From IMG/VR virus record IMGVR_UViG_3300037400_001251: a DNA stretch of 64,000 nt; one strand, given 5' to 3'. Position numbers and translations under genes: made by a program. This DNA comes from an uncultured virus (IMG/VR IMGVR_UViG_3300037400_001251) (lineage: Duplodnaviria; Heunggongvirae; Uroviricota; Caudoviricetes). Positions 18,351 through 61,705 of the stretch are shown piece after piece. The stretch's first letter is position 1, and each line of letters opens with the position of its first letter. Under the pieces are notes generated by a model that was not told the origin of the DNA, did no database searches, and saw nothing but the letters and a program-made list of their open reading frames with translations.

Positions 18351-19571
18351 ATGCCGATAGTAACTTTAATGGATGTTGATAAGTTTGTAGATCCTAAAAA
18401 AGAAGTTACTTCTGCTAATGTATTAACGACTAAAGGTAAGTTTGACAATAATGGCTTATTTAGTGAAACTATCTTTGGTTTAAATAATAGTAAAGATAGA
18501 AGTAAAACTTATGGATATATAAGCTTACATACTAAGATATTACACCCATTCATGTATGAGGTATATAAGAAAATTGAAGAAAAGATTATCTTGTTAATTG
18601 AAGGTAATACTATGTATTATAATGAACAAGATAAATTATTATTTAAAGAACAAGATAAAAATAATTCTTTAAAAGAAATAAGTGGCTTCGATGGAGCTAT
18701 GTATGCTATACATAATGGTGTAAACTATAGAGGCGATACTGATGTAAGATATAAGATAATAGAAAAACTTCAAGAAAACTTAGATAATGGATTAGCCTTT
18801 ATAGATAAAGTAATTGTTATTCCTCCATCTTATAGACCTGTTCAATTAAGTGACCAAGGTGAATTAGTAAGTATGGATGACTTGAATACGTTATATATAC
18901 AATTAATTAATGAAACTAAAAAGATTCAAATGATTAATAGTAATAATGATGATACAGGTCAAATGAGTGACAATGCTTTAATTAGAAGACAAATTCAATA
19001 TCTAGTAAATGAAATATACCTAATAGGTAAAACTAAACCAGCTAAAAAGTTTGGTTCTATTAGAGGACAACTATTAGGTAAAAGAGTTGACTTCTCTGCC
19101 AGATCTGCAATTACAGCTGGGTATGATGTACCTGCTGGTTCTTTAGGTGTACCATATAGAATTATAGCTAATATCTCTCAACCATTATTAATTCATTATT
19201 TCTGTAAACAACTTGTTCAAGATAGTCCTGATTATAATAAGTTAATGGATAATCTTGAAAAGAATGAATTTGATAAAAGTAATAATGTCCTAGTTATTAC
19301 TAATTGGTTAAAAGATATAGCTGAGAATAAGTGTAAATTAGATAAAGATGAAGTAACTTGGATTAAAGAAAAATTCCAAGAAGCTTTAGGTGATAATATG
19401 GTACTAATGAAAAGAGACCCGGCTATACATAAAGGAAGCTGGCAAAGTTTTCATCCTATAGTTTGTGATGGTAATACGATGAGAGTACCCATTACTAGGA
19501 CAGGTTTTTTTAACGCAGATTTTGATGGCGATTCCGTATTATGTAAGATAAGAGTTAGAATTTCTGATTAA
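18351..19571 (+). CDS. rpoC: RNA polymerase beta' N-terminal half, copy 1 (probably virion RNAP), ending in a 12-aa split-intein N-fragment
   Basis: GLFSETIFG, VIPPSYRP, LLGKRVDFSARS, RDPAIH, NADFDGD, then SVLCKIRVRISD*; no N-terminal Zn-binding Cys motif. Confidence 0.9.
   Translation: MPIVTLMDVDKFVDPKKEVTSANVLTTKGKFDNNGLFSETIFGLNNSKDRSKTYGYISLHTKILHPFMYEVYKKIEEKIILLIEGNTMYYNEQDKLLFKEQDKNNSLKEISGFDGAMYAIHNGVNYRGDTDVRYKIIEKLQENLDNGLAFIDKVIVIPPSYRPVQLSDQGELVSMDDLNTLYIQLINETKKIQMINSNNDDTGQMSDNALIRRQIQYLVNEIYLIGKTKPAKKFGSIRGQLLGKRVDFSARSAITAGYDVPAGSLGVPYRIIANISQPLLIHYFCKQLVQDSPDYNKLMDNLEKNEFDKSNNVLVITNWLKDIAENKCKLDKDEVTWIKEKFQEALGDNMVLMKRDPAIHKGSWQSFHPIVCDGNTMRVPITRTGFFNADFDGDSVLCKIRVRISD
19533..19568 (+). 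mobile_element. split intein N-fragment IntN1 (12 aa, Ser1)
   Basis: SVLCKIRVRISD directly after NADFDGD; complements the intein lacking block A at 23521. Confidence 0.75.
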
Positions 19572-19576
19572 AAGAT

Positions 19577-19620
19577 AAGCCTAGGTAAAATCTATTTAAG
19601 ATTATATGCCTAGGCTTTAT
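19577..19620 (+). terminator. hairpin/terminator after beta'-N copy 1
   Basis: aagcctaggta / tgcctaggctt inverted repeat followed by T-rich tract. Confidence 0.6.
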
Positions 19621-19653
19621 CTATCTCAACTTTGAAAGGACAACAAGAAATGT

Positions 19654-20763
19654 ATGTTAATTACTTTAGAAGATGCCAATACAATATGTAGAAGTTTAAG
19701 ATGTTTGAATTCATATATAGTATCACACAATCTAACAGATGATTTAATTGTTAATAAGGATATAGTTGCTATATGGTTTAAGTTTAAACACTATTCATTA
19801 TTTTATGATAATAGTGAGTTATGTATATATAAGAGAAGAGAGGATAACTCTATATATAGTAGAAAGATATACATATCTAAAAAGTTTAGAAGATTTACTG
19901 ATAATGATTTTATCTTAGGTTATAGAATGGTAATAGATGGAGAAGATAAAGAGTATATCTTAGATTATGATGATAATTTTATCTATAACTTCATTAAGAT
20001 AATATGTGAACCTAATGATTATGATTTTGATAACGATGAATCTAATAGTAGTGAATTATTAGAAGAAACTTTCTTAGGTGTAACTCATAATATCTTATTA
20101 AAAATAACTAGATGTTTTACTACTATACATAAGATGATAGAGTTAGTTAATAAGATAAATGAATTATCTAAAGAGAAAGTAGATAATGCAGTTACTATAA
20201 CTAATGAGTTTATCCATGATTTAAGATATATCTATGACCATGTATTTAGTGTAGATAGTAAATTATTTAATGTTAAATCTATATGGGATAAGCATTGCTA
20301 TAAAGTATATGATGTAATAGATACTGGTTTAAGATATTATGGGTTTAAATTATGTAATAGAATAGACAATCTATATAATGTATATAACCCAATGAGAAAT
20401 GATTTAGTATTAATTCTAAATTTTCAATTCTATCAAAAGACTAGTTTATATATAGGACATAATTATCCTAGAACATTAGAATATGATACTAGAGTAAGTG
20501 TTTATGAAAATAGTATATGCTTAGGCGATGCTTTTATAGATTACTTAGATATAGATTTACCATTGTCAGTACTTGATTTAATAAGAAAAACATTTAACTT
20601 AGATGGAAACAATCAAGATGAAAAACTTAAAGAAACTCATGACTATTATATTAGGAATGATTCTATGAGTGACTCTGTATGGAAACCATTAGTTAATGTT
20701 AGAAAGTTTCTTTTGAAATATGATAAATCTACTAAGAAAAGAAAGGACGACAATAATGAATAG
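19654..20763 (+). CDS. hypothetical protein (putative diverged family)
   Basis: LDYDDNFIYNFIKII motif; AACTTTGAAAGGA leader. Confidence 0.6.
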   Translation: MLITLEDANTICRSLRCLNSYIVSHNLTDDLIVNKDIVAIWFKFKHYSLFYDNSELCIYKRREDNSIYSRKIYISKKFRRFTDNDFILGYRMVIDGEDKEYILDYDDNFIYNFIKIICEPNDYDFDNDESNSSELLEETFLGVTHNILLKITRCFTTIHKMIELVNKINELSKEKVDNAVTITNEFIHDLRYIYDHVFSVDSKLFNVKSIWDKHCYKVYDVIDTGLRYYGFKLCNRIDNLYNVYNPMRNDLVLILNFQFYQKTSLYIGHNYPRTLEYDTRVSVYENSICLGDAFIDYLDIDLPLSVLDLIRKTFNLDGNNQDEKLKETHDYYIRNDSMSDSVWKPLVNVRKFLLKYDKSTKKRKDDNNE

Positions 20764-22510
20764 AACTAAGATATCAAATAAGATAATACTAGATAAACTA
20801 ATAGATACATTTGATAGTTTAGCTAAAGCTTATGTAGTAGAATATGATGTATTAGAAGAAATATCTCAGATGTATTTATCTAGTTTAAACACTGATGAAG
20901 ATAGCTTTGAATGGTTTATAGATAGTAATAGGCAATATCTAGGATTAGGCACTAAAGTGTTAAGATACGAGGAAGAAAATGCTTATAGAAGGTTTGATGA
21001 AAAGAAATATTTGCCAGTGCCAGTGCCTACTAAAGTATATAGATTCTATCCTAATAGGCCTAAATTTGTAGCTGATCCATATGAGCCTAAATTTGGTGTA
21101 GAAGATCCAGAAAAAGATGTCTATGTAGAAGTATCAGCTGTAGATAGAAACTTTGCTAGAAAGATATCTGAAATATATTTTGGTAGACCAGATGTGTTTG
21201 AAACAGTTAAAGTATATAACAATGATTATTATAGCAATACATCTAAATATTATGAAGGTGCTATAGAAAAATATTTAGCTAGAGTTACTATTAAAGAACT
21301 ATATCCTGAATTAATTAAAGCTAGAGAAACAGGAGATAAATTATTTAAATTAACTAGCGATGAAGATGGTTCTTATCATATTAATGATAGGACAATAGAT
21401 ACTGTTTTTAAATTAGAAGAGTCTATATTTAAATGGTTAATACAGGCTAATCCTTTACTTAGAAAATTTCAAGAAATGTTATGGTATGTACTTAACGATG
21501 TATTTGGCATTCAGAAGCATGAACTAAATACTAAAGGAGATACAGACCTATACACCATGATAATTAGTGATGATAAAATGTTCATGACAATAGAAATTAA
21601 TTATACTGGCGTACGGTTTAAGAAAGAAAATATTGATGTATATAATCCTTTTAATAATCCAAGTGATATATCAGTATATAATGGTACTTTTAGCGGTGGT
21701 TATCTTAATAGTTGCCAAAATATAAGTTCTAGATATTTATCTAAGTATAAACCATCTATAATGTTGAAGATATATCATGGTGCTAAATCTTTAGATAATA
21801 GTACCACTATAGATATGTTTGATCCTGAGTGTGTTGTTAAGATATGTGATTTAATCAATGTATATTATAAGATAAATATAAACATTGAAAATAGAGATAA
21901 GGCTATAAGATTCTTAGAAAAAGAATGTAAGACATTTAAAGCTATTAAAGATCTTAAAGAATGTTGTAATATGATTATCTATAATAGTGATTACATTAAA
22001 TTAGATAAAAAGATTGATGTTAATCCTAGAAGTAATATAATGATTACTTTAGATGATAATGATATTATGGATATAGAAAATAATCAATTAAAGATTATCT
22101 TCAAAAAGAAAGTTCCTACTTATCATAACAATATAGATAATATCTATGTATGTGATAAACAAGGAAAAGTATTCTTAAGATGTAAATGTGATAGTATAGC
22201 TAATTATAAAGATGTCATTAGTTTCGCTAAGAATATTAAACCATACAATGTAGGTGATAGGTTTACCAAAACTAATACTAAGAAATATTTTAATGATAAT
22301 TATAAAGCGTATTTAATATCTAGTAGAATGACAATGCCTGGTATAGATATTGAAAACTTTGGTATTAAAACGCCTCCTATTAGTTATCAATTTATAAGGA
22401 GTATTAGTTATAATGATAAAACCAATAGCCTTGTTGAACAAGTCATTAGAGAGAATAGTCGTTATACAGAGCCAAGAGAACGGACTACTCTCGATGAAGA
22501 ATCCTATTAA
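20756..22510 (+). CDS. hypothetical protein
   Basis: Long ORF; start moved to the ATG after GAAAGGA. Confidence 0.6.
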   Translation: MNRTKISNKIILDKLIDTFDSLAKAYVVEYDVLEEISQMYLSSLNTDEDSFEWFIDSNRQYLGLGTKVLRYEEENAYRRFDEKKYLPVPVPTKVYRFYPNRPKFVADPYEPKFGVEDPEKDVYVEVSAVDRNFARKISEIYFGRPDVFETVKVYNNDYYSNTSKYYEGAIEKYLARVTIKELYPELIKARETGDKLFKLTSDEDGSYHINDRTIDTVFKLEESIFKWLIQANPLLRKFQEMLWYVLNDVFGIQKHELNTKGDTDLYTMIISDDKMFMTIEINYTGVRFKKENIDVYNPFNNPSDISVYNGTFSGGYLNSCQNISSRYLSKYKPSIMLKIYHGAKSLDNSTTIDMFDPECVVKICDLINVYYKININIENRDKAIRFLEKECKTFKAIKDLKECCNMIIYNSDYIKLDKKIDVNPRSNIMITLDDNDIMDIENNQLKIIFKKKVPTYHNNIDNIYVCDKQGKVFLRCKCDSIANYKDVISFAKNIKPYNVGDRFTKTNTKKYFNDNYKAYLISSRMTMPGIDIENFGIKTPPISYQFIRSISYNDKTNSLVEQVIRENSRYTEPRERTTLDEESY

Positions 22511-22511
22511 T

Positions 22512-22889
22512 ATGAAATATTACTATATAGATGAAGTAAGAACTAATTTAATAGGATTAGATGAAACTAAAAATTATTGTAGGCCTATGTTCTGGAATAG
22601 TGATGAAGTAACTGATAATAATAAGTTGGTTACCTTAAGAACTGTTACTACAGAAAGAGGAGAGAAGATTAAGATAGATAACCATTGGTCTTATAATATT
22701 ACTCCTGAACATAGGCATGCTTTTGGTAAAGATATTAATCTAAGGTTAAGAGTACTATTAGAAAGTAGTGTACTAACTTATTTAGATGATATCTTTACTA
22801 ATAAGGAATGGTTTCTAAATTATGTAAAAGAAAATAACATTCCACAGTATGGCTTTTATGAATACCTAAAAATGAAAGGGTTCAATTAA
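22512..22889 (+). CDS. hypothetical protein
   Basis: In-frame ATG just after the upstream stop (track start 22413). Confidence 0.5.
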   Translation: MKYYYIDEVRTNLIGLDETKNYCRPMFWNSDEVTDNNKLVTLRTVTTERGEKIKIDNHWSYNITPEHRHAFGKDINLRLRVLLESSVLTYLDDIFTNKEWFLNYVKENNIPQYGFYEYLKMKGFN

Positions 22890-22891
22890 CT

Positions 22892-23500
22892 ATGTTAGAT
22901 GAAGTAAGAGATAAATTAAATCAAGCTAAAGAATACTGCCTAAGCCAATGTAAAAAGAAAGATGAAACCACTGGTAAATGGGTAGTAGACACAGAAGCTC
23001 AAGATTTATATAAAGAAGCATTTTCTAAAATAGAAACTAATATCAGACAATATGGTGATAGTTTAAATTTTGATACTATGTTTCAAACCATTATTGTGAA
23101 CAATTCTATTATTACAGATGATAGTAGTACACCTATGTCTGACCAATGGAATCTATTTGGGGGAGAAACTTATACTAAGATTCTTAATACAGCTAAAGAA
23201 GATTTCTTTACAGGTTTAAGTAGTACTACTAAAGTTGATGAATTTGCTAATGATATATTACAATCAATAGGTAGTGATGCTTCGGCTAGAAGAAGTGATT
23301 TATCTAATAAGTTACAGCCTAAATTAAGAACTGCTTTAGATAGAACATTTAGTCCATTGAATCCTGAAAAGTTATCTGATGATGCTAAAAGGAAAATTAA
23401 TGAAAGAATTCAAAAGATATTCTATGATGGTAAGATTAAAGATATCATTCAAGATTATCATTTAGATGTGACTATACCATCATTTTTACCTATAGGTTAA
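22892..23500 (+). CDS. hypothetical protein
   Basis: 202-aa ORF directly upstream of beta'-C copy 1. Confidence 0.6.
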   Translation: MLDEVRDKLNQAKEYCLSQCKKKDETTGKWVVDTEAQDLYKEAFSKIETNIRQYGDSLNFDTMFQTIIVNNSIITDDSSTPMSDQWNLFGGETYTKILNTAKEDFFTGLSSTTKVDEFANDILQSIGSDASARRSDLSNKLQPKLRTALDRTFSPLNPEKLSDDAKRKINERIQKIFYDGKIKDIIQDYHLDVTIPSFLPIG

Positions 23501-23520
23501 ATAAGGAAAGAAGTTGAATA

Positions 23521-24003
23521 ATGCAAGAGTTAATATGTGAAATTAAAGATTTAAAAGATAGAGTTGACTTATTCAAATTTAAAAGTAGAAAAGATAATGT
23601 TGAACATTATAAACCTATTAAAGATATAACTATACAATCTATTAATATTGATAATGGTTATTGTTCTTGGAATAGGATTACTGATTATAGTGTTCATTAT
23701 AATCTAGAGATGTATTCTATATTTGATCCCTTAAATAGATTTGAACAATTCTATGTATCTAGTGACCATTCTTTAATCGCTTGGGACGATAAAGAAGAAT
23801 GTATTAGAAAGGTAACACCATTAGAAGCAAAATCAAATGAATTTCTAATGGCAATAATATATCATGAAGAAGAAGATGATTATATATTAATACCTTTTAC
23901 AGAATTATTAATCGAACTAGATAAAACTAAAACTACAGGATATGATTTTACTGTAGAAAATGATTTCACATTTAGTACATTTGATGGTTTCTTTGTCCAA
24001 GAT
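23521..24003 (+). mobile_element. split intein C-fragment IntC1 (161 aa, ends VQD; +1 Thr)
   Basis: Block B VSSDHSL, block F GYDFTVE, block G DGFFVQD/T; no block A. Confidence 0.85.
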
Positions 24004-27000
24004 ACGGCAGCTATCTATATGCCATTAAGTATGGAATCTCAACAAGATTGCAAGAAGATGTATATACCAACAGGTATGAATAATAGTACTCAATTATCAT
24101 TAGAAATTAAGCATGAACTTGTATTAAGTGCATACATAATTACTGATAATAGAAAACCTATGAAGCCTGATTATGGCATTGTTACTTATAAGCAATTAAG
24201 AGAAGATAATATGATTGGCATTAAAGATAATGTTCATTGCCATCAAACTTGTACTTTAAAGTTGCCTAATGGTAAATCAATTAAAACTACATTAGGTAGA
24301 GCATTATTCAATTCCTTATTGCCAGATGAGTTTTTAAAGAAGAGATATAATTGGTTTTTAGATAAACAGATAAACAAGAAGATTCTAAATAGCGATATAA
24401 TATACAATCTATCTTTAGAATACACTATGGAAACTATGGCAGATATAGTTGATAACATAACTAATTTCTTAAGAGTATATACTAGTGTTTACCCTGCTTC
24501 ATTATTATTAGATGAGTTTATGGAAAACACTGTATTTAAAGCTCTTAAAGAGAAGTATGAAAAAGCTAAGACTATGGATGAGAAACAAGCTATCATAGGT
24601 GAAATAGAATCTAAATTTAAGACAGGCATTAGTGACGTTATGCCAATGATAGATTATATAGTGGCATCTGGTTCAAGAGGTGATCCTAGTCAGTTAAGAC
24701 AAATGCTAGTTACTAAAGGTTTAATACAAGATGCACAAGGTAATTTAATATCTATAAATGATTGTTATGTAGATGGTATGAAGCCTGAAGGAGCATTTAT
24801 GGATGGCTATGGTTCTAGAAAAGGTATTATGGACAGAAGTAGATCTACATCTGTTACAGGTTATCTTACTAGAAAAATAGTTTATGCTTGTGCTAGTGTA
24901 TTGTTAGATCCTGATTTAAACGATTGTGGAACTAAAAGAACTATTCCTGTAAAGATCACTAAAGATAATGCCATGTTATTATATGGTAGATATATGATTG
25001 ATTCTAAAGGAAAGAAGATTCTATTCGGTCCAGACAATCAAGACCAATATATAGGTAAGACAATGGATTTAAGATCTCCTATATATTGTAAGTCTAAAAA
25101 GTTGTGTAAGACTTGTTATGGCGACTTAGCTAAATTTTATGGTACTCCTTTTGTAGGCATCTTAGCAGCTAATGCTTTGGGAGAACGCGGAAGTCAAGAA
25201 ATAATGAAGACCTTTCATTGCTTAGACGCCTCAACAGGTGTTTTCCTTGATACAAAGAACGGAAAGTCGCTTGAATGCCTAGGTTCATTGTTTAATAAAT
25301 TTGAAGATAAAAAAGAATTTACTTTAAATGGAACTCAAGAAGAAATAGATCTTAGTGATAAAGATATTAAAGCAGATAACAATGGCAAATGGACAAAGGT
25401 TCTTAGAATAATTAGGCACAAACGTAATCCAAATAGTTCTTTGATTTACTTAAGAACCAGCGATGGTCATGGTATTACTTTACAAGACAACCATCCTATA
25501 GCTATTCAAAACGATGAAGGTTATTCTTTTATAGAACCAAAAGATGTTAAGCACAAGAAAGATAAATTAATTATAAGCAATAATAATATATGGCAAGATA
25601 CAAAAAGATCTTGTTTTATAGATGCTTATATATTAGGATATTATCTTGGAGATGGTTGCATTAAATTTGGTAGTACCAATAAGAATAAGCCTGAAGACAA
25701 AAGACCTTTAGATGTTCTTATAGATTGTCCATTAAATACAAAATCTATACAGCATTCTAATTTAATGAATATGCTAAATGAATATGGTTATCGTAGTGTA
25801 TCAGATACAGATAAATGTATAATCATAAGAGACAATGATTTAGCTAAGAAGATTCATGAAGAAACTGGTAGATATTCTTATGCTAAGCATTTACCGATTG
25901 ATTATATATATTATAATGATGAAGATCTATGTAAGATATTATGTGGCTTAATAGACAGCGACGGTTGTGTTCAGTCTAAAGATGGTTATATAGCATTGGT
26001 AGTATTTGAAATGAGTAGTGGTGCTATAATTAATGCTATGTGTAACATATTAGATAAATTCGGAGTAAAATATAATGTATGTACTAAGCCTGGTGGTAAA
26101 ACTAAGATATTAGGTAAAGACACGTTTGCTAGAATGTCTTACGGATTAACATTATATCCTAAAACTATACACGAGGAAATATTTAAGTACTCTGTTAAAT
26201 TTCAAGGTAAACATTGTAGTCCTAAAATTATGACTAGACGTGTTCCTAATAATATAGTTACTTACATTGGCAAAGCAAGTCTAAAAGAAGAAACTGATTA
26301 TGTCTATGACTTAATGACTGAAGACCATCAGTTTAGTGCTAATGGAATATTAGTTCATAATACCGCAGGCGCTGTAAGTGTAGTTATACCTGATTTAATA
26401 CAACAAGCTTTGGACAACAATCCTAACTTAACTAAAGATCAAATGTCTAAATACTTTAAGCAAGATGGTTATCAATTAAAGTTTAATGTTAATCAAGAAG
26501 TTGAATTAACATTAAGACATGATGAATATCTTGATTCAGGTATGACTGAATTTACATTAGATCCAGAAAAATCTGGTATTATAAAAGATTCTACTATTGA
26601 AGGTACTAATATTCAGAGTGCTTTAGATCTTAAACCATTTGCAGGCCATGTCCAATTTGCTGATGGAACTAATTTAGAAATAATACTAGATGATGAAGTT
26701 TTCATACCTTATGAATTCTTTGAAACTAGAGAAGAGGGTAAGAATGCCGAAGGTATTAAATGTATTGTATTAAAAGGTAATACTAAAGATATTCCATTCT
26801 TATTCAGTACTGTTATAGCTAGTAAAGATTTGAATGTAGTAATGAAAACTATATTAGGTATTATTGAGAAAAAGAATATTATGAAATATCCTGAAGTGGC
26901 ATTTAATAAGTTAACTAAGATATATGGTGATGGTTTTAAAGTTGCATATAACCATATTGAAATCCTAATATCTCAGATATTTAGAAATAAGATGAAACCA

Positions 27001-27213
27001 GAATATCCTGCTAGATTAATCGAGCCTTATTCTGCTCAAGTATATGGTATTAAGTATATATCACATCTAGAAGGATTCTTATCTGGCATGTTATTTGAAA
27101 ATATGGGTAAATCATTACAGAATGGTTTTATTAATGATACTGTTACACATAATCCTATGGAACAATTACTTAGCGATGATTTTGATTTCTTAAGAGAAGA
27201 TAAGGAGGACTAG
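23521..27213 (+). CDS. rpoC: RNA polymerase beta' C-terminal half, copy 1, with N-terminal split-intein C-fragment and internal cis-intein
   Basis: Extein starts TAAIYMPLS (= QMAVHVPLS); TTLGR, SGSRG, SRKGIMDRSRSTSVTGYLTRK bridge helix, DCGT, RSPIYC, CKTCYG, GERGSQEIMKTFH/TAG trigger loop. Confidence 0.9.
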   Translation: MQELICEIKDLKDRVDLFKFKSRKDNVEHYKPIKDITIQSINIDNGYCSWNRITDYSVHYNLEMYSIFDPLNRFEQFYVSSDHSLIAWDDKEECIRKVTPLEAKSNEFLMAIIYHEEEDDYILIPFTELLIELDKTKTTGYDFTVENDFTFSTFDGFFVQDTAAIYMPLSMESQQDCKKMYIPTGMNNSTQLSLEIKHELVLSAYIITDNRKPMKPDYGIVTYKQLREDNMIGIKDNVHCHQTCTLKLPNGKSIKTTLGRALFNSLLPDEFLKKRYNWFLDKQINKKILNSDIIYNLSLEYTMETMADIVDNITNFLRVYTSVYPASLLLDEFMENTVFKALKEKYEKAKTMDEKQAIIGEIESKFKTGISDVMPMIDYIVASGSRGDPSQLRQMLVTKGLIQDAQGNLISINDCYVDGMKPEGAFMDGYGSRKGIMDRSRSTSVTGYLTRKIVYACASVLLDPDLNDCGTKRTIPVKITKDNAMLLYGRYMIDSKGKKILFGPDNQDQYIGKTMDLRSPIYCKSKKLCKTCYGDLAKFYGTPFVGILAANALGERGSQEIMKTFHCLDASTGVFLDTKNGKSLECLGSLFNKFEDKKEFTLNGTQEEIDLSDKDIKADNNGKWTKVLRIIRHKRNPNSSLIYLRTSDGHGITLQDNHPIAIQNDEGYSFIEPKDVKHKKDKLIISNNNIWQDTKRSCFIDAYILGYYLGDGCIKFGSTNKNKPEDKRPLDVLIDCPLNTKSIQHSNLMNMLNEYGYRSVSDTDKCIIIRDNDLAKKIHEETGRYSYAKHLPIDYIYYNDEDLCKILCGLIDSDGCVQSKDGYIALVVFEMSSGAIINAMCNILDKFGVKYNVCTKPGGKTKILGKDTFARMSYGLTLYPKTIHEEIFKYSVKFQGKHCSPKIMTRRVPNNIVTYIGKASLKEETDYVYDLMTEDHQFSANGILVHNTAGAVSVVIPDLIQQALDNNPNLTKDQMSKYFKQDGYQLKFNVNQEVELTLRHDEYLDSGMTEFTLDPEKSGIIKDSTIEGTNIQSALDLKPFAGHVQFADGTNLEIILDDEVFIPYEFFETREEGKNAEGIKCIVLKGNTKDIPFLFSTVIASKDLNVVMKTILGIIEKKNIMKYPEVAFNKLTKIYGDGFKVAYNHIEILISQIFRNKMKPEYPARLIEPYSAQVYGIKYISHLEGFLSGMLFENMGKSLQNGFINDTVTHNPMEQLLSDDFDFLREDKED
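25219..26361 (+). mobile_element. cis-intein with LAGLIDADG homing endonuclease (381 aa)
   Basis: CLDAST start, LQDNHP block B, ILGYYLGDG and LCGLIDSDG, VYDLMTEDHQFSANGILVHN/T end. Confidence 0.93.
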
Positions 27214-44535: not shown

Positions 44536-45753
44536 ATGAGTAACAATCAAAACATCAACATTAACCTAATTAACAATCTTTTCTCTTCTCTAACTAGTGG
44601 TAAAATCACTCTTAATTTTGGCGATACTGAAATTAATGTAGATATTACTGTTAATAGAAAAGGTAATATTGTTGAACAAGTAGCTAACAAGATTATAGAA
44701 GAAGTAGATAAAGATGAATCTCATAAGCATTTGCCTTTAAAGTATTATCCTATATCTGAAAATATAGATATGGATAGAGTGAATTATCTAGAAAAATTTC
44801 GTACTAAAGATTCAGATCCTATAATAGGTGAAGACAGCAAAGAATTAAAGAAAGAAGAAACTGGTTGGTTTAAAGGTGAATTTAGATATCGTGGTGAAAA
44901 CAGAACTAGTTTACATTATTATGAAGATGGTATAGCTGTTTGTGATACTGGTATAGTAAGTAGAAACCACATATTAAATGAAACCACAGTTAAGGTAGAT
45001 AATCCTGTAACTGAAGAATGTTGTAAGAAATGCTTATTAGTTTTAGCTAAAAGAAAAACAGCTACTTATAAAGAAATCAAACAATCTAAGAGTGTTAATG
45101 CCACTGGTTGGTATTTAAGAATGACTGATTCTAGAAAAGGTATCTATAAGCATTTCTATAAAGATGGTCATACTATTTGTAGAAATCATTGGTCATTAAC
45201 AACCATAGATAGAGAAACTAATCTAGATACTGATAAAGAGTATAAGATATGTAAAGTTTGTCTAGAAAAAGCCAAAGCACATACTAGAGCAGATCTATCT
45301 AATAAGAAAGTAATTAAAACTTTAGCACCCAAAGATGTTATAACACCAACAGAAATGTTAGAAAGATGGAATAAGAATCTAGTATTATTCGGAGAACCTG
45401 TTCCATTAAAAAGTAATTTAGAAACCGATGATGTTTATGCTGAAGCTGCTAAACGTATGTTAGTAGTTTATAGAAAACCTATCAATAATATTATGAGAAA
45501 ATTATCTTCTGATAATAGAATGACTGTTGATTCTACTACAGTTAAATTCTATTGTAAAAATAAGCTAGTAGAATTAACTGTTATTAGAAATGATAATAAG
45601 AGAAATAGTGAACTATCTATCAAGAAGATTAATATTACTGATAGAACATCACCTAACCAAAGAATTACTGGCACTGCCTATGATATGACATCTATGGTTA
45701 CTAGAGTTATTTTAGAAAGGAGTCGTAAGTTAAAAGATGAAGAAGAAGATTAA
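44536..45753 (+). CDS. protein with two tandem putative Zn-binding repeats
   Basis: TGW..HYYEDG..C..CKKC and TGW..HFYKDG..C..CKVC. Confidence 0.55.
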   Translation: MSNNQNININLINNLFSSLTSGKITLNFGDTEINVDITVNRKGNIVEQVANKIIEEVDKDESHKHLPLKYYPISENIDMDRVNYLEKFRTKDSDPIIGEDSKELKKEETGWFKGEFRYRGENRTSLHYYEDGIAVCDTGIVSRNHILNETTVKVDNPVTEECCKKCLLVLAKRKTATYKEIKQSKSVNATGWYLRMTDSRKGIYKHFYKDGHTICRNHWSLTTIDRETNLDTDKEYKICKVCLEKAKAHTRADLSNKKVIKTLAPKDVITPTEMLERWNKNLVLFGEPVPLKSNLETDDVYAEAAKRMLVVYRKPINNIMRKLSSDNRMTVDSTTVKFYCKNKLVELTVIRNDNKRNSELSIKKINITDRTSPNQRITGTAYDMTSMVTRVILERSRKLKDEEED

Positions 45754-47476
45754 AAAACTAGTTTTATGGGATTTTGAAGCTGTCAAAGGTGAAGCTGTTA
45801 CTTCTGATAAAATAGTAGAGAAGAAACGGTTCCACCCAGATGGCTTATATTCCGAAAGGATCTTTGGACCCATTAAGGATTATGTTTGTAGTTGTGGAAC
45901 ATTTAATCCTAATGGGGGTGTTTGTCCTGTCTGTGGTGTAAGATTTGGGCCTAGTAGTTTAAGAAGTACTACTTTTGCTCATATCAAATTACCAACAGAA
46001 GTGATTAATCCCTTGTTCATGTGGTCTTTAACATCTAGAACTAAGAATAAGAATTGTAAAATAGATGTTCCTTCATTAATAGAATATAAGTCATTTCTAT
46101 ATATTCCTAATGATAGACCTGAAGAAATAGTTCAATATGATAACTATAGATATAACTATCAAAAATTATCATATGAAAAGATGAAAGAATTAGAAGAACA
46201 AGGGTTAGATCCAAACACTTATGTATTAGATATTAATGGTGAATCTGTTTCTAATAATTTTAATAAGTTAACTGATGAAGAAAAAGCAGCTTTTAAAGAA
46301 GCTTATGAATCTAAGCATAAATTCATTGGTGCTCAAGCTATATTAAAATTAATAGATTGGCTAGAAGAGAATATAGCTAAAGATAAAGAATTTAATGTAG
46401 AAGAATACATTCGTAGAAAAGAATGGGATCTAATTATTAAATTTAAAGACAAAATTACCATTAATATTATACCTGTTATACCTCCAGATTTAAGACCTAT
46501 GATGTTTACTGGTAATAATATGAGTGTGGCTGAAACATTAACTAGATATTATACCACATTATTAACTAAAGTAAATATCATGAAAAATAAGACTAAGTTC
46601 ATTAAAGATGTTAGTTCATTAACTTGGAAGAATTATGAAGATCTACAAAAACAAGTTAATGAAATCTATAATGAAATTATGGATGTCTTTGGCGGTAAGA
46701 CTGGTATTATTAGAGCCAATATTTTAGGTAAAAGAATTGACTATTCAGGTAGAGCTGTAATAGCAATAGATCCATCTCTAAAATATAACGAATGTAGAGT
46801 TCCTTACCATATGGCATTAGAAGTCTATAAATATGAGTTTGCTAGATATCTTGCTAAGAAAGAAAACAAGACTATATTAGTAATACTCAAAGATATAGAA
46901 GAATCTTTAAAGTTAAGGGACTATCGTTTAATAGATGAATTAGAAGATTGGATTAAAGATAAGCCAACTCTATTGAATAGACAACCGACATTACATCAGT
47001 ATGGCATGTTAGCTTTCAATACTAAGCTTTCAAGTGACAGTACTTTGAAAATCAGCCCTACATGCACGTCTGCGTATAATGCTGATTTTGATGGGAAAAA
47101 TTCCTCAACCATGCCTATTTGCGACATATTGTAAATAGGTCTAAATATTCCCATCATTAAAGTTCGGAAAATCGGTGGAGCCTAAACTTGTAAAATCAAG
47201 CATGGTAATACCGAGATCCCATAGAAATCACTAGGGATTGTAACGCATAGGTAGTGAACGTTAAGAGAGTAATAATCTACCCACGAGTCCGGACCATATA
47301 CTATAATAATTATAGTTGGAAAATATATGCTGAGCTATACCGAAAGGTATAGAAGTAAGGGATAAAAAGCCTTTACGGTAACATAACTGGATAGTGCTTT
47401 AGGTGATGTAAAACTTAAAGTAAATGGTAAAATCATAGAATCTGCAATAGAAAATGTATTTAATATAGAAATCTAA
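45737..47476 (+). CDS. rpoC: RNA polymerase beta' N-terminal half, copy 2 (probably non-virion RNAP); join(45737..47095,47390..47476); ends in a 27-aa split-intein N-fragment
   Basis: GLYSERIFGP, CSCG..CPVC Zn domain, VIPPDLRP, LGKRIDYSGRAVI, LNRQPTLH, YNADFDG; exon 2 restores D and adds SALGDVKLKVNGKIIESAIENVFNIEI*. Confidence 0.88.
47096..47389 (+). ncRNA. ORF-less group I self-splicing intron (294 nt)
   Basis: IGS 47146-47156; P3 gttcgga/tccggac; P4 tcggt/accga; P6 atccc/gggat; P7 gcata/tatgc; P7.1 ggtag/ctacc; P9 ctatacc-GAAA-ggtatag; terminal G; removal restores NADFDGD in frame. Confidence 0.88.
47393..47473 (+). mobile_element. split intein N-fragment IntN2 (27 aa, Ser1)
   Basis: SALGDVKLKVNGKIIESAIENVFNIEI, block-A-like; complements the intein at 59735. 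Confidence 0.8.
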
Positions 47477-47523: not shown

Positions 47524-47549
47524 TCTCAACTTTGAAAGGATATATCTTA

Positions 47550-58111: not shown

Positions 58112-59164
58112 ATGAATAACAACACTGAAATATTTCTTGATACTGAAAATACTATAAAGACTCTAGATAAAGAATATAAATTCTTTTCTAATAATGAGCA
58201 CTTAAAACCTATTAAAGAAGAATTGAATGTTATCTTTACAGAAATCAAAGATAGAATCAATGATTTGAATACCTTAAGAAAAGACTTATTAGCTAAGATA
58301 GAAAAAGAAGAAGAACATAATAAGTCTAAGTCTAAAGATGATGGCAATAGAAAATTAATTAAGAAATCTAAAGAATCAATATATGGTACTAAAAGAGTTA
58401 GTAAAGATATTGCTAACGGTATATTCAATAATGACAATACTAATTTAGATGATATTAATTGGTTATTTTGGTCAGCTAAGCAAAACGAATTACGTAATTA
58501 TCAGAAAGAATTTGAAAATAAGATAGTTGGTGATTCTTTTTCTAGACAAGATGATTTAGATAAACTTATGAGAATATCTGTAAGAACCAAAGAGGTTAAG
58601 GATAAGATAGCTGATAAAGAAAAGAAACTATCTAGAGAATTAAACTTAACAGAAAAGCATCTTATTAGAGATGATATAAGGCAATCTAAATTATTTAAGT
58701 TTGCTTTAGAAAATGATAATACTATTGAATTAGATGATGTTAAGGTATATCTAGAAAATAAGGAAACCTTACAGACATTAGGTAATGAAGTAATGGTTGT
58801 ATTAAAACCTTATGATAAAGATTCTAAGAAACATTATTCTACTAATAAGGATAGAATTGAAGTTAAGGTTAATGATAAACTAAATAATCCTAATGTTAGT
58901 TACGGTTTCTTCCATGAATTTAAAGAAGATAAAGATGGTAATGTATTATTAGTAATTAGAGATAAGCAAAGAGAATTAATTGGTGAAACTGCAGACGCTA
59001 GTGTAACTAAATATGCTTGGTCTCAGTTCCCATCTAGTAGAATTAAAAGATTCTTTATCAAAGCCAGAGATGTATGGCATGAATATGATAAAGAAGGTAA
59101 TATGTATGAAATCAAAGATATATGGAAAGAAGTAGATGTAAATAATCCTAGAAATCAAGATTAA
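58112..59164 (+). CDS. hypothetical protein, paralog of 57227
   Basis: Same shared blocks; start after TTTGAAAGGA. Confidence 0.6.
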   Translation: MNNNTEIFLDTENTIKTLDKEYKFFSNNEHLKPIKEELNVIFTEIKDRINDLNTLRKDLLAKIEKEEEHNKSKSKDDGNRKLIKKSKESIYGTKRVSKDIANGIFNNDNTNLDDINWLFWSAKQNELRNYQKEFENKIVGDSFSRQDDLDKLMRISVRTKEVKDKIADKEKKLSRELNLTEKHLIRDDIRQSKLFKFALENDNTIELDDVKVYLENKETLQTLGNEVMVVLKPYDKDSKKHYSTNKDRIEVKVNDKLNNPNVSYGFFHEFKEDKDGNVLLVIRDKQRELIGETADASVTKYAWSQFPSSRIKRFFIKARDVWHEYDKEGNMYEIKDIWKEVDVNNPRNQD

Positions 59165-59296: not shown

Positions 59297-59719
59297 ATGG
59301 CAAATAATCCACGTATAACTATTGATGATATAACTATAGAAAATCAAAATCTAATAACCAAGATTTTAAGATTTAATCATATTACCCCATCTACAGAAAG
59401 AATAGTAGCTTATTATTTAGGAAGTATCTTAGGTCTACATCCTAATTTTTCAGATCCAGACCAAAGAACATTAGATACTACTCCTAAGATAATCAAGAGA
59501 AAAGATGTTGCATTTATACCCCAAAAGATATCTAGGCTAAGAGATTTAAGAAGAGTCTTTTGGAATAATTACCCTGAATTTAAAGAACAGTATTATAGAT
59601 CTTATAAGACTCAGAATGATTATCCTACTGATGTAAGATGCAAGTGGGTAGACTTTGTAGATCTATTAGAAAAGAATTGTGTAATCACTGATACTCTAGC
59701 CCAAAGAGCTACATTATAA
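59297..59719 (+). CDS. hypothetical protein
   Basis: 140-aa ORF upstream of beta'-C copy 2. Confidence 0.55.
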   Translation: MANNPRITIDDITIENQNLITKILRFNHITPSTERIVAYYLGSILGLHPNFSDPDQRTLDTTPKIIKRKDVAFIPQKISRLRDLRRVFWNNYPEFKEQYYRSYKTQNDYPTDVRCKWVDFVDLLEKNCVITDTLAQRATL

Positions 59720-59734
59720 AAGGAGGTTTATATC

Positions 59735-60193
59735 TTGAAGCTTTTTAAAGAAGTTCGTAAAGATGTAAAAGAAAACGGTGTTGTTGTAACTCATTATGAA
59801 CCACAAGCTGATGTTACCATTATGTCAATGAATATTGAAAATGGTAAGTTTGAGGAAAAGAAGATAACTGATTTTAGTAAGCATGAAAATATTAAGATGT
59901 ATAAGTTTCATGATGCTATTGAAAGATTTAAAGATTTTTGGTTATCTGATAATCATAGTGCTATTGTTAGAGATAAGCAAACTAGTTTATATGGTAAAGT
60001 AACTCCTATGGATATTATATTAGATCCTAATAGATATGAACTAGTTCAAATGATAGGTAGTCCATTATCTAGAAGATTTATACCATGTGATCAAATAGAA
60101 GTTACATTAGATGAAAGTAAAACCATAGGATATGACTTTACAGTAGAAGATAATTATACTTTTACAACAGATGATGGAGTAGTTGTCCAAGAT
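59735..60193 (+). mobile_element. split intein C-fragment IntC2 (153 aa, ends VQD; +1 Ser)
   Basis: Block B LSDNHSA, block F GYDFTVE, block G DGVVVQD/S; clearly homologous to IntC1. Confidence 0.85.
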
Positions 60194-61705
60194 AGTATGG
60201 CTGCTTATTTTACTATGACACAAGAAGCTCAAGACAGTTTAATTAAGCATTGTCATATAGATAATAACTTGTTCACTAACTTTAATAATGAATTAACATT
60301 ATCCTTAGGACATGATATAGTTTATGGGATATTCTTATTAAGTAAAAGAAAACCATCAGCTTTGCCAGAACCATTATATAATTATATGGTAGAAAAGAAA
60401 TGGGATTGTATTAATAAGAAAAGATTAGCAGAGTTTCTTAACTATTATATTAGATTAGATAAAAAGAAACATGCTGATATCGTTAATAAGTTAGTTACAT
60501 TAGGATTCACTATATCTAGTAGGTATAGTCAAACTTTACTATCTTTCGATAATATTAAGAAGTCTATTATTCCTGCAGATAAAAGAAAAGCCTTGTTTGA
60601 TAAATACATGAACAAGGAAATAACTATGTATCAGTATGTTCAAGAAGAAGATAAAATGATAGATGACTTGAAAAAGATATGTCTATTTACAGATCTTATT
60701 GAATCAGGTTCAAGAGGTTCATGGCAACAAGCTAAACAGATGTTCTGTCAAAGAGGTTTCGTTACTAATTCGGCAGGTCATATCAAACCTATTCCTGTAT
60801 GGAAGAACTTAACTGAAGGATTAGATAGTAGATCTATGTTCTTATCATGCTATGGTGTTAGAAAAGGTTTAGCTGACGTAGCAGATAATACTGCTGTATC
60901 TGGTGCATTTACTAGAGGTCTTATATATCTAGGTTTAGAAGCTAGACAAAGTAGTTCTAAAAAGCCATGTAATACTACTAATTATTTAAGGTTTAAACCT
61001 GATAATGAAAAGATGGCATCCGCTCTAATTGGTAGATATATCTTTAATGATGATTTGTGTACTAGTATGACTAGAATTACATATGACAATTATAAAGATT
61101 TCATTGGACAAGAGTTAAGGTTAAGATCACCAATATTCTGTACTGAAAAAGAATATTGTCATTACTGTTGTCCACATAAAGAATTATCTGAATTAGAACC
61201 AGGTAAAAGTTACAATGTTGGTGTCGTCGCCGCAGGAGCATTGAGTGAACCACTCACACAGTTGACACTTAGACAATTCCATACGAGTGGCGCGGTCACA
61301 AAAATATCAGACGGAGAAGATGATGACCAAGACAAAGATATCACCTACGATATACGTGGTATTCAAAGAATGTTCTCGAAACCTGATTTTGATATATACA
61401 CTGTAAATGATTGGGTAAAGAAACTTTACTTATCATTCTTAGATAAGAAGAATATCAAACTAATGTTATATGAAGTATTAGCATCTTGTCTGATGTGGGT
61501 TAAACCTGAAGATGATGATGAACCTAATGTTCATTGGAGATTAGCCCAGGATAGAGAATTACTATTAGTAGGATATTCTAAAGTTCCTGAATATGAATCA
61601 TTCCTATTAGGTGCAGCATTTAAGAACTTTAAGAGAAAACTATTATCATCTATCGGTAAGGAAGTAGGTGGAAGTAGATTCGATAGAATGATAATAGGTA
61701 ACTAA
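59735..61705 (+). CDS. rpoC: RNA polymerase beta' C-terminal half, copy 2, with N-terminal split-intein C-fragment
   Basis: TTG start after AGGAGG; extein SMAAYFTMTQEAQ; SGSRGS, GVRKGLADVADNTAVSGAFTR, RSPIFC, SEPLTQLTLRQFHTSG. Confidence 0.9.
   Translation: MKLFKEVRKDVKENGVVVTHYEPQADVTIMSMNIENGKFEEKKITDFSKHENIKMYKFHDAIERFKDFWLSDNHSAIVRDKQTSLYGKVTPMDIILDPNRYELVQMIGSPLSRRFIPCDQIEVTLDESKTIGYDFTVEDNYTFTTDDGVVVQDSMAAYFTMTQEAQDSLIKHCHIDNNLFTNFNNELTLSLGHDIVYGIFLLSKRKPSALPEPLYNYMVEKKWDCINKKRLAEFLNYYIRLDKKKHADIVNKLVTLGFTISSRYSQTLLSFDNIKKSIIPADKRKALFDKYMNKEITMYQYVQEEDKMIDDLKKICLFTDLIESGSRGSWQQAKQMFCQRGFVTNSAGHIKPIPVWKNLTEGLDSRSMFLSCYGVRKGLADVADNTAVSGAFTRGLIYLGLEARQSSSKKPCNTTNYLRFKPDNEKMASALIGRYIFNDDLCTSMTRITYDNYKDFIGQELRLRSPIFCTEKEYCHYCCPHKELSELEPGKSYNVGVVAAGALSEPLTQLTLRQFHTSGAVTKISDGEDDDQDKDITYDIRGIQRMFSKPDFDIYTVNDWVKKLYLSFLDKKNIKLMLYEVLASCLMWVKPEDDDEPNVHWRLAQDRELLLVGYSKVPEYESFLLGAAFKNFKRKLLSSIGKEVGGSRFDRMIIGN

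Follow-up and report, generated by a model that had tools for sequence, protein, structure and literature searches.

How does a phage assemble two RNA polymerases (RNAPs) when the gene for the beta' subunit of each is broken inside the catalytic loop? The window, meaning the whole 64,000-nucleotide stretch analysed here, belongs to an uncultured AR9/phiKZ-like jumbo phage from gut metagenomes and is AT-rich (GC 28%). Pfam places beta' domains in all four gene pieces considered, which are distantly homologous to AR9 g270 and g264. We conclude that the window very probably encodes two beta' subunits, one per multisubunit RNAP, each spread over two genes that are broken directly after the final Asp of NADFDGD and that carry pieces of a one-family split intein that would rejoin the halves.

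Gene organisation

The elements of both pairs (Table 1) lie throughout at the positions given in an earlier note made from the sequence. In pair 1, the N-half ORF (18351-19571, 406 aa) passes from NADFDGD directly into the Ser-initiated peptide SVLCKIRVRISD, 12 residues long and beginning at 19533 as had been noted, and the C-half ORF (23521-27213, 1230 aa) opens with a 161-aa segment ending FFVQD and then continues as TAAIY. The C-half ORF of pair 2 (59735-61705, 656 aa), which has a TTG start with AAGGAGG upstream, opens with a 153-aa segment ending VVVQD and continues as SMAAY; the previous description of both C halves as an intein piece followed by TAAIY or SMAAY is thus borne out in both ORFs. 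Each C half has a ribosome-binding site of its own, which points to independent translation.

The second N half had been described as ending in NADFDGD plus a 27-aa peptide at 47393. This Ser-initiated peptide, SALGDVKLKVNGKIIESAIENVFNIEI, is present from that position with the Asp codon directly before it, but the ORF from 45737 stops short: unspliced, it reads NADFDG followed by KNSSTMPICDIL and a stop at 47134, while the Asp codon and the 27 residues lie in a second exon behind a 294-nt insert that had been overlooked. The predicted product lengths of about 1082 and 957 aa were both reproduced, although a product of 1082 aa also requires the removal of a third, whole intein of 381 aa (FH/C...VHN/T), likewise overlooked before, from C half 1. 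This intein scores 33.7 bits on LAGLIDADG_3 and 34.6 bits on Intein_splicing, slightly below the Pfam cut-off of 35.8, and its empty site reads FHTSG in C half 2 and FHTGG in the syntenic relative L010.

The four ORFs between the halves of pair 1 match no Pfam or PHROGs family and have no homologues in L010, which, like L005 and L007, has a single DUF7487 ORF between its beta' halves. A Pfam search of the gaps between the beta' halves returned no endonuclease.

Table 1. Features of the two beta' loci in the window (all coordinates are those of the window).
Feature	Coordinates	Strand	Evidence
beta' N half 1, extein, 394 aa, ends NADFDGD	18351..19532	+	Pfam RNA_pol_Rpb1_2, E 9.8e-19
IntN1, 12-aa intein N fragment, and stop	19533..19571	+	relatives with the same tail pattern
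Four ORFs (369, 596, 158, 202 aa) between pair 1 halves	19654..23500	+	no family match
IntC1, 161-aa intein fragment, predicted split after beta2 (S1 site), ends VQD, next residue Thr	23521..24003	+	AF2 model pLDDT 82.5; VIA-align to 9hth, Z 15.9
beta' C half 1, extein part a, begins TAAIYMPL	24004..25218	+	Pfam Rpb1_3/4/5; 49% identical to C part of intein-less P0017
Whole 381-aa contiguous intein with LAGLIDADG endonuclease, C...VHN/T, at FH/T	25219..26361	+	Pfam; empty sites
beta' C half 1, extein part b, and stop	26362..27213	+	Pfam, coordinates
beta' N half 2, exon 1, 453 aa, ends NADFDG	45737..47095	+	Pfam Rpb1_1 and Rpb1_2
294-nt structured insert, intron-like	47096..47389	+	codon position of AR9 g270; intron-less allele; compensatory pairs
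Exon 2, codon of the catalytic Asp followed by IntN2 (27 aa, from 47393) and a stop	47390..47476	+	ten relatives with DFDGD + 27-39 aa
IntC2, 153-aa intein fragment, predicted split after alpha1 (S2 site), ends VQD, next residue Ser	59735..60193	+	AF2 model pLDDT 89.5; Foldseek; VIA-align Z 14.5
beta' C half 2, extein, begins SMAAYFTM, and stop	60194..61705	+	Pfam Rpb1_5, E 7.8e-14; six relatives

Intein fold and break sites

Pfam detected no intein family in the two fragments of the window alone, and contiguous relatives score 30.1, 24.5, and 17.9 bits on Intein_splicing (PF14890), below the 35.8 cut-off. The Hint fold, for which the earlier note had suggested a check, was found in the AlphaFold models of both large fragments. 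For IntC2, Foldseek returned 20 matches at E ≤ 1e-3, those listed being inteins or BIL domains, with 9hth at the top (E 1.4e-6); VIA-align to 9hth_A gave Z 14.5 (rmsd 2.5, 137 aligned residues), and 63 chains reached Z ≥ 8. The IntC1 model aligned to 9hth with Z 15.9 (rmsd 2.9, 154 aligned) and to 8cpn, the PolB16 OarG intein, with Z 10.0.

Residues 2-153 of the IntC2 model span 22-159 of the 9hth chain, and residues 3-168 of the IntC1 model span 12-166. Across solved inteins, IntC2 residue 2 matched positions 22-27 and IntC1 residues 1-3 matched positions 12-14, while the terminal Asp of each fragment aligned to the last intein residue. The predicted folds are thus missing their first ~12 (IntC1) and ~22-26 (IntC2) residues, lengths that fit the 12-aa and 27-aa tails, and a helix at residues 8-13 occurs in the IntC1 model and not in that of IntC2. 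By these models, IntC1 is broken at the atypical S1 site, after beta2, and IntC2 at the atypical S2 site, after alpha1, both of which are named and known as natural split sites (PMC13014065).

The two inteins of the window share 37-38% identity. In their alignment, C1 carries 14 additional N-terminal residues that are collinear, end to end, with the second half of the 27-aa IntN2, in agreement with the earlier observation that the surplus on IntC1 has its counterpart on IntN2. Placed end to end, IntN1 and IntC1 also align collinearly with the N part of P0223, which has no break. The complementary split points and the pairings drawn from them, 18351 with 23521 and 45737 with 59735, are matched by where the models start relative to the tail lengths.

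Catalytic residues and relatives

An exhaustive search gave a family set of 118 relatives (representatives), which include contiguous inteins as well as ones split at the canonical or at atypical sites, all of them Asp-ended; position counts were taken over 87-94 rows. Pair 1 combines Ser1 with Thr+1 and pair 2 Ser1 with Ser+1. Among relatives with an intein N part, the residue following DFDGD is Ser or Cys in 18 of 18 (8 + 10), and the +1 residue is Thr in 67, Ser in 16, and Cys in 4 of 87 rows. Block B, which reads SSDH and SDNH in the window, has its His in 90/94 rows and a Ser/Thr in 91/93, and the F:4 Asp is present in 88/89.

The terminal residue of an intein is usually Asn. Both window inteins end in Gln-Asp, unlike the C-terminal His-Asn of class 1, with the terminal Asp in all 87 family rows and a penultimate His in none (0/87). 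Inteins ending in Asp, Gln, or Glu are described as accepted class variants that splice by cyclisation (PMC4031507). A class 1 assignment is consistent with the Hint fold, the Ser/Thr nucleophiles, block B and F:4, and in-frame insertion with intein-less alleles, and the split state with the placement of the two fragments in different genes, where each is joined to one host half, and with a short N fragment and a break at S1 or S2.

The intein-less allele P0017 reads NADFDGD/TMAIYFPL across the site and is 51% identical to N half 1 and 49% to C half 1; the bacterial-like relatives P0040-43 and P0047, also without an intein, read DFDGD/QMA. Contiguous alleles, proposed earlier as something to look for in related genomes, exist in 21 members with the same Asp end, for which excision would be required to obtain a working beta'. 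Five relatives of N half 1 have DFDGD followed by 10-13 aa of the pattern S/C-x-x-x-K-[VI]-R, ten relatives of N half 2 have tails of 27-39 aa, and 6/6 relatives of C half 2 (653-659 aa) open with an intein piece. L010, at ~50% identity, reads DFDGD/CCFSKIRLRY and a stop, with an S1-type C half 1.4 kb later. That both beta' paralogs are interrupted in the catalytic loop by homologous split inteins, with staggered and complementary break points, is strongly supported by the fold, the conserved catalytic positions, the intein-less and contiguous alleles, and the synteny in this distant relative.

Proposed splicing and pairing

Sequence and predicted structure indicate that the halves are most likely ligated by trans-splicing after translation. 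In pair 2, the insert would first be removed from the mRNA at DFDG/D, and in pair 1, the LAGLIDADG intein would also be cis-spliced, to judge from its canonical C...HN/T. The short N piece would then dock in the cavity that the large C piece offers, completing the Hint fold of a class 1 intein, broken after 12 residues in pair 1 (18351 + 23521; Ser1/Thr+1) and after 27 in pair 2 (45737/47390 + 59735; Ser1/Ser+1). Ser1 would form an oxyester at the Asp-Ser bond, the +1 Thr or Ser would attack it, and the C-terminal Asp, in the place of the usual Asn, would cyclise and release the intein, a step established for other Asp-ended inteins. Ligation would leave each beta' as one uninterrupted chain (1082 or 957 aa) in which the Mg-binding loop is intact.

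Tentatively, we hypothesize that these are members of an intein lineage specialised for the RNAP Mg-binding loop (Asp-ended, without a penultimate His, Ser1) that has been naturally broken at no fewer than three positions, and that selection in this phage clade may hold one beta' paralog to the S1 break and the other to the S2 break, preventing cross-ligation of polymerase halves. Another possible reading is that both inteins splice and are not orthogonal, the stagger being a historical accident; correct pairing would then come from expression timing, from contacts between exteins, or purely from sequence divergence. Close relatives differ freely in the alpha1 part of IntN2 yet have a nearly constant IntC start, so recognition there looks loose; the N pieces of GOS-TerL and AceL-TerL are described as interchangeable (PMC11766414); 37-38% identity might by itself suffice for correct pairing; and the split state changes several times on the intein tree. 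However, relatives down to ~50% identity retain the break at S1 in paralog 1 and likewise that at S2 in paralog 2, and in Aes123 PolB1, the closest solved intein, activity is reported lost when an N piece of <26 aa meets a C piece without alpha1 (PMC13014065), the analogue of IntN1 with IntC2, which is one of the two possible cross pairs.

The insert in the second N half

The proposed route for pair 2 depends on removal of the insert, which interrupts N half 2 at DFDG/D and is most likely a self-splicing intron. Its codon boundary is that of the intron in AR9 g270, a gene annotated in two pieces (record KU878088); both lie between the Gly and Asp codons of D-x-D-G-D and end in G. They differ in that the AR9 intron contains an endonuclease (HNH) ORF, follows U, and matches RF00028 weakly, at 28.4 bits when run as a control, whereas the window insert has no ORF, follows G, and matched no Rfam family even at E ≤ 10, RF00028 included. 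An intron-less allele of N half 2 exists in P0026 (99% identical). Inserts in other phages share homology with its 3' 170 nt, 19/40 pairs being compensatory across 3 phages, the RNA is structured (z -3.7), and a related insert interrupts a DNA polymerase gene in a cultured phage as well. The window insert has G as its final base (47389), and the upstream exon ends in GGG and is able to pair with CCCAUCA at 47150-47156. Group I introns usually have a U immediately upstream of the 5' splice site.

It is very unlikely that pair 2 is instead dead, with the insert staying in and N half 2 ending in NADFDGKNSSTMPICDIL, without the third Asp or an intein piece. The insert's lack of an Rfam match and of U at its 5' junction would fit such a reading, as would the absence of a spliced joint in four runs, where RNA cover at the junction amounted to two short contigs per run. 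Against it, both exons and C half 2 are intact and conserved, the exon-2 frame restores the Asp and a block-A-like peptide, and the insert is a conserved structured RNA shared with the DNA polymerase gene mentioned above. Moreover, the read-through tail of N half 2 recurs in the N half 1 orthologue of P0008, a 97% identical phage, as expected of a mobile intron targeting that codon.

Comparison with known systems

Literature searches returned no account of this beta' split-intein arrangement, in line with the earlier note, which knew of no description. The closest frame for the locus is the virion and non-virion RNAPs of phiKZ/AR9-type phages, described as two paralogous sets of beta/beta' pieces per jumbo phage, in which beta' is split after the DPBB domain and assembles non-covalently (Sokolova et al., 2020, PMC7598289); the word "intein" does not occur in that review. 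We rejected a beta' of this non-covalently split type for the window, where the break lies in NADFDGD and is bridged by intein pieces and the C exteins cross the usual split. AR9 g270 extends 54 aa beyond the catalytic Asp. The C exteins of the window reach across the AR9 split region, and the spliced products would span the usual split point, a feature missed previously. That the intein fragments no longer splice, merely holding the halves together or cleaving off while beta' works as two polypeptides, is highly improbable: jumbo-phage RNAPs do function from split beta and beta' pieces (PMC7598289), and the family has Asp for Asn and no penultimate His, but the break falls within the Mg-binding loop, with the usual split ~30-55 residues further on, the catalytic Asp would carry ~170 Hint-domain residues, the block B His and the two nucleophiles are kept across the family, the 21 contiguous Asp-ended members must excise to yield any beta', and splicing is reported for Asp-ended inteins (PMC4031507).

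Among inteins, trans-splicing being our preferred reading, PolB16 OarG (Pasch et al., 2023, PMC10189870) is alike in being a natural, cysteine-independent Ser1 intein with an S1 split after beta2 and a very short N fragment. It resides in a family B DNA polymerase, its N fragment of 15 aa, there called the shortest characterised, compares with 12 here and 10-13 in relatives, and the intein ends in Asn (solved variant N183A) where the window inteins end in Asp. It also has an extra conserved His upstream of block B (motif NX), described as always preceded by Lys/Arg; the window family has a His in 91/93 rows, the sole invariant column in A3, which lies at a similar position and is preceded by Lys/Arg in only 23/93. 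Aes123 PolB1 (PDB 9hth; PMC13014065), the best structural match to both IntC models, is cysteine-less with Ser1 chemistry, but it has a canonical natural split and a DNA polymerase host and shares ~18-20% identity with the window inteins. AceL-TerL and GOS-TerL have natural S2 splits after alpha1, their N pieces measuring 25 and 37 aa (27 in IntN2, 27-39 in relatives); they differ in their phage terminase host, Cys dependence, Asn end, and occurrence as one intein per genome, in contrast to the staggered pair in paralogs here (PMC11766414, PMC13014065).

Core transcription proteins are described as holding few inteins; archaeal RNAP inteins also occur in the largest subunit (COG0086, 14 cases in Euryarchaeota), are contiguous whereas those of the window are split and phage-borne, and, as far as tabulated, have no counterparts in bacteria or phages (Novikova et al., 2016, PMC4760082). 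The fractured genes of Dassa et al. (2009, PMC2677866) are eight DNA synthesis and repair enzymes, "RNA polymerase" being absent from the text; the gaps between halves in the window, by comparison, are 4 kb (four ORFs) and 12 kb (~20 genes).

If the proposed selection for staggered breaks is correct, this phage would hold two cysteine-independent split inteins that evolved orthogonality in nature, one of them with a 12-residue N piece. A break in the intein, after which the halves were dispersed to 4 and 12 kb apart, would then represent a living intermediate toward the jumbo-phage polymerase subunits that are permanently split.

Two beta' gene pairs in the window

Beta' domains were found by Pfam in four open reading frames (ORFs), which are the N and C halves of two pairs (N1 and C1, N2 and C2), and we reproduced both the coordinates and the product sizes (1082 and 957 aa) of an earlier note on this DNA. 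The 1082-aa product would also need excision of a whole LAGLIDADG intein within C1. The claim that both N halves end in NADFDGD held for N1, while the N2 frame departs from the motif after NADFDG and the Asp codon lies in a second exon.

Features of the beta' genes (nucleotide positions; a slash marks an intein boundary)
Feature	Position	Strand	Content
N1	18351-19571	+	Pfam beta' domain; NADFDGD, then SVLCKIRVRISD, stop
C1	23521-27213	+	Pfam beta' domain; first 161 residues end FFVQD, then TAAIYMPL
Whole LAGLIDADG intein in C1	25219-26361	+	381 aa, FH/C...VHN/T
N2	from 45737	+	Pfam beta' domain; NADFDG, then KNSSTMPICDIL, stop
Insert in N2	47096-47389	+	294 nt between Gly and Asp codons
N2 second exon	3' of 47389	+	D-SALGDVKLKVNGKIIESAIENVFNIEI-stop
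C2	59735-61705	+	Pfam beta' domain; first 153 residues end VVVQD, then SMAAYFTM

The window has a G+C content of 28.4% and nearly all its genes on the + strand, and each C half is preceded by a Shine-Dalgarno sequence of its own. ORFs between or beside the halves showed no endonuclease and mostly no family at all in Pfam and PHROGs. AR9, PBS1, Staphylococcus jumbo phages, and phiKZ-like phages have distant homologues of the RNA polymerase pieces (22-30% identity); the best AR9 matches were the beta' piece g270 for both N halves and g264 for both C halves, which does not discriminate the virion from the non-virion pair. Among 50,697 public phage records, no near-identical DNA was found for 18351-27213, a region for which the window has no close relative there, and tblastn with the large intein piece of C1 (IntC1) plus 19 aa of extein gave no match at E<=0.01; C2 matches in 52 records all began at query residue 213 or later, none covering the intein. 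An IMG/VR scan with C1 or C2 alone gave no match, and with alignment A1 it gave five loci.

Hint fold and split sites

The large intein fragments alone matched no Pfam family, and the Hint fold for which the earlier note had proposed a search was recovered in the structure models of both. For C2 residues 1-170, AlphaFold2 gave a model with a mean pLDDT of 89.5 from an alignment of 37 relatives. Foldseek with this model returned 20 PDB chains at E<=1e-3, the matches listed all being inteins or intein-like domains, and the top match was 9hth, the cysteine-less Aes123 PolB1 split intein (E 1.4e-6, TM 0.63). VIA-align to 9hth gave Z 14.5 and rmsd 2.5 over 137 residues for C2, for which 63 chains scored Z>=8, and Z 15.9 and rmsd 2.9 over 154 residues for the C1 model (pLDDT 82.5).

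The terminal Asp of both large pieces aligned with the final residue of solved inteins, C1 residues 1-3 with their residues 12-14, and C2 residue 2 with residues 22-27 (VIA-align). From these ranges it follows that N-terminal parts of about 12 and about 22-26 residues are missing, as compared with intein tails of 12 and 27 residues on N1 and N2 (IntN1 and IntN2). A helix at residues 8-13 was present in the C1 model and absent from the C2 model; in the sequence alignment the N-terminus of C1 was 14 residues longer, the figure that had been put at about 14. Placed end to end, IntN1 and IntC1 were collinear with relatives such as P0223 in which the N part of the intein is uninterrupted. As modelled, the large pieces are Hint domains without exactly what the short tails supply, with pair 1 split at S1 and pair 2 at S2. 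In the nomenclature adopted, S1 lies after beta2, as in VidaL and PolB16 OarG, and S2 after helix alpha1, as in AceL-TerL and GOS-TerL (PMC13014065). The aligned ranges and the tail lengths bear out the earlier reading of two beta' paralogs broken at the catalytic loop by homologous inteins at staggered sites.

The intein family across relatives

C2 residues 1-170 matched 118 proteins at E<=1e-3 (74 at <=1e-10) when 1.84 billion representatives were searched exhaustively with phmmer; the architectures of these proteins were set from match coordinates and re-alignment. An atypical split, with the large intein piece at the protein N-terminus, was seen in 39 of the 118. Canonical splits comprised 24 C halves, in which the N-terminus carries just the final ~55 residues of the intein, and 19 N halves, with only the first ~105 residues and ending at most 15 residues from the C-terminus, some possibly being contig-end cuts. 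The search for contiguous alleles that had been proposed was successful, with both intein parts in one protein in 21 relatives, one of which (P0163) had a LAGLIDADG domain; the remaining 15 were fragments or other forms. Contiguous relatives scored 30.1, 24.5, and 17.9 bits with Pfam Intein_splicing, below its cut-off of 35.8.

Counted over the rows covering each alignment column, the last intein residue was Asp in 87/87, and the penultimate one was Gln (53), Tyr (18), Trp (6), or another residue (10), and never His. The first C-extein residue was Thr (67), Ser (16), or Cys (4). Block B had His in 90/94 and Ser/Thr in 91/93, F:4 was Asp in 88/89, and an extra His ~24 residues upstream of block B, present in 91/93, was the sole invariant column of alignment A3. 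An intein with Asp, Gln, or Glu as its last residue follows the same four-step mechanism, with cyclisation of that residue, according to a review that cites Amitai et al. 2004 (Mills, Johnson and Perler, PMC4031507).

This same Asp-ended intein occurred at the same site in long proteins too (P0253, P0257, P0258, and P0261; 933-3173 aa); in a PDB sequence search of P0253 and P0258, their exteins matched bacterial-type beta', and P0258 had more than one intein copy. In an intein tree whose backbone was unresolved and bootstrap unconverged, and from which only this separation was taken, the two window inteins fell in separate supported clades (support 99/92 and 100/99). The tree excluded rows with fewer than 110 of 136 columns and, where they came through this filter, any tandem-intein proteins from the set P0152, P0162, P0200, and P0258; its split-site labels, set by hand, are rough, and those of P0187 and P0208 doubtful.

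Pairing of the halves

The N1 search returned 18 proteins, 14 of them phage-like. Five of these 14 end in DFDGD plus 10-13 residues of the pattern S/C-x-x-x-K-[VI]-R-[VLI]-R (one begins with Cys), in five the sequence turns unrelated immediately past DFDG or DYDG, the pattern expected of introns, three have longer intein N parts (70, 135, and 131 residues), and one, P0017, is intein-less (NADFDGD/TMAIYFPL). For N2, the first 23 proteins found were inspected: 10 end in DFDGD plus 27-39 residues, two break after DFDG, one (P0037) has a contiguous mini-intein, six with DFDGD are bacterial-like (DFDGD/QMA in five, while P0045 ends there), and in four a regex found no DFDGD-type motif. The P0037 mini-intein (S...VQD/S at NADFDGD) is followed four residues later by a second, Cys-initiated intein-like tail of 24 aa at the protein end, that is, two inteins inside one loop. 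All six C2 relatives (653-659 aa) open with an intein piece and are 46-98% identical over residues 1-185.

The pairing of 18351 with 23521 received direct support. The N part of P0017 was 51% identical to N1 and 24% to N2, and its C part was 49% identical to the C1 extein and had no match to C2. Six contiguous relatives (P0164, P0176, P0177, P0181, P0183, and P0189) scored higher to N1/C1 than to N2/C2. On L010, a metagenome contig syntenic with the window over 30 kb, an N1-like gene ending DFDGD/CCFSKIRLRY is followed by one DUF7487 ORF and, 1.4 kb downstream, by a C1-like gene with an S1-type start (MKYSKEEVLHIQDLISRSDLFEF...) and the ending VFVQD/TMAVYFPI, in which the internal LAGLIDADG intein is absent. 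For 45737 with 59735, elimination and a weaker similarity to bacterial-like beta' support the predicted pairing of N2 and C2.

The single ORF between beta' halves was a Pfam DUF7487 member on three relative contigs: L005 (6341-7453, E 1e-18), L007 (4028-5971, 1e-54), and L010 (11345-12616, 3e-8). By eye, the L010 protein has a PD...ExK-like motif at its end, and in a "fractured gene" layout the DUF7487 protein may play the part of the homing endonuclease.

The insert in N2

The 294-nt insert in N2 is likely removed at the RNA level. Its position between Gly and Asp codons with a last base G counts for a self-splicing intron and is shared with the AR9 g270 intron, the g270 annotation being a CDS in two pieces that enclose an HNH gene; AR9 mature mRNAs were determined experimentally (10.1101/2020.12.14.422802). 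An insert-less allele, P0026, was 99% identical to N2 over the extein, the insert folded better than shuffles (z -3.7), and in a three-sequence alignment of its 3' part, compensatory changes were present at 19/40 predicted pairs, all of which also count for a self-splicing intron. Against it, the preceding exon ends in G, not U, and Rfam gave no relevant match around the insert at E<=10, whereas the AR9 intron scored 28.4 bits on RF00028; nor did the whole window have a gathering-level match. No joint across the insert was seen in two RNA and two DNA runs, but the RNA contigs stopped short of the junction, with cover too thin to count.

Two further observations count for a self-splicing intron. 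Cultured phages have inserts that share 69-76% identity with the 3' 170 nt, one after an endonuclease ORF and ahead of a DNA polymerase gene piece, another ahead of a tape-measure gene; neither had an Rfam match at E<=1. A 33-nt core (47351-47383) recurred, its flanks varying, across many unrelated contigs from both DNA runs and both RNA runs, as the conserved core of an abundant intron-like RNA family with no Rfam match. P0008, which is among the five N1 relatives that break after DFDG or DYDG and is 97% identical to N1, continues after DFDG with K-D-SSTMPICDIL, the same K-x-SSTMPICDIL read-through as window N2; in this sister phage the same insert apparently occupies the same codon of the paralogous gene, the N1 orthologue. 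The 28-aa intein tail of P0026 (SLYGDVKLKINGNKELKVSVKDLENISI) differs at about half the positions from window 47393-47473, a difference that may stem from recombination at the break or from co-conversion of the flanking exon as the intron homed, and that suggests an exchangeable alpha1 part of the N piece.

Habitat and other window genes

Sequence words from 46700-47700 were found in runs labelled bovine gut metagenome (24 rows, 14 studies), with all sampled words in one run, which may be the source of the window, and up to 0.45 of them in others. Just past the second N2 exon, ORF 47532-48008 matched Pfam Tad8, a type II Thoeris inhibitor (E 9.8e-10). PTPS (QueD-like) and two QueC-domain ORFs (8156-10120 and 27952-29721) suggest 7-deazaguanine base modification; at 9407-10120 the QueC profile is matched in its C-terminal half only, so that this gene may be in pieces too. 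Three adjacent ORFs at 54003-56678 match a pyrimidine dimer DNA glycosylase, Thg1 (tRNA-His guanylyltransferase, E 2e-30), and a radical SAM protein. The neighbouring ORFs 57227-58000 and 58094-59164, neither with a Pfam or PHROGs family, look alike by eye in their C-terminal domain (R[VI]EVK..N.K..NPN..YG.F..FK.D..G). Directly 3' of C2 comes a beta-subunit N piece (Rpb2 domain 3), with gyrase B, an RIIA-like protein, and the start of gyrase A nearby (beta piece included: 61935-63602, 63599-64000, and 31274-35800).

Probable trans-splicing, possible orthogonality, and implications

The break sits on the third catalytic Asp of beta'. Because an unspliced complex would keep ~170 Hint-domain residues at the Mg site, and because the 21 contiguous members with the same residues would yield beta' only through excision, both pairs very probably trans-splice. 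The spliced products would run through the AR9 beta' split point, ~30-55 residues further on, which is common to virion and non-virion enzymes (PMC7598289).

The two inteins are possibly a ready-made orthogonal pair. In favour of orthogonality, each break site was kept within its paralog down to ~50% identity, and Aes123 PolB1 N pieces shorter than 26 aa lost activity when the C piece was without alpha1 (PMC13014065). Three points count against it: close relatives differ in the alpha1 part of IntN2; the two window inteins share only 37-38% identity, which could be enough even with no stagger; and they fall in separate supported clades.

The earlier note knew of no description of this arrangement, and our literature search likewise found none, supplements aside, for an intein in a phage or bacterial beta' or for one at NADFDGD. 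No split intein in a jumbo-phage RNA polymerase was found in the literature either, the search leading instead to a PolB intein; the word "intein" is absent from the jumbo-phage RNAP review (PMC7598289), and "RNA polymerase" from the text of Dassa et al. 2009 (PMC2677866). What is new is that the two beta' paralogs of one genome carry homologous split inteins, one broken at S1 and the other at S2. Core transcription proteins are described as holding few inteins (PMC4760082), and the origin of split jumbo-phage polymerase genes is treated as an open question for which intron mobility has been proposed (PMC7598289). In the window, an intron-like insert and three inteins, all of them mobile elements, are packed around the same motif, and halves have drifted apart while protein-level rescue of function stays possible; the spliced beta' would not be split at the "common" site. 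From this family come junctions with Ser/Thr only, N pieces as small as 10-13 aa, and an unusual Asp end, and its contiguous, canonical, S1, and S2 forms can be compared directly. If our reading is true, the catalytic loop of the RNA polymerase exists only once two proteins are ligated, and enzyme activity would hinge on their co-expression and splicing.
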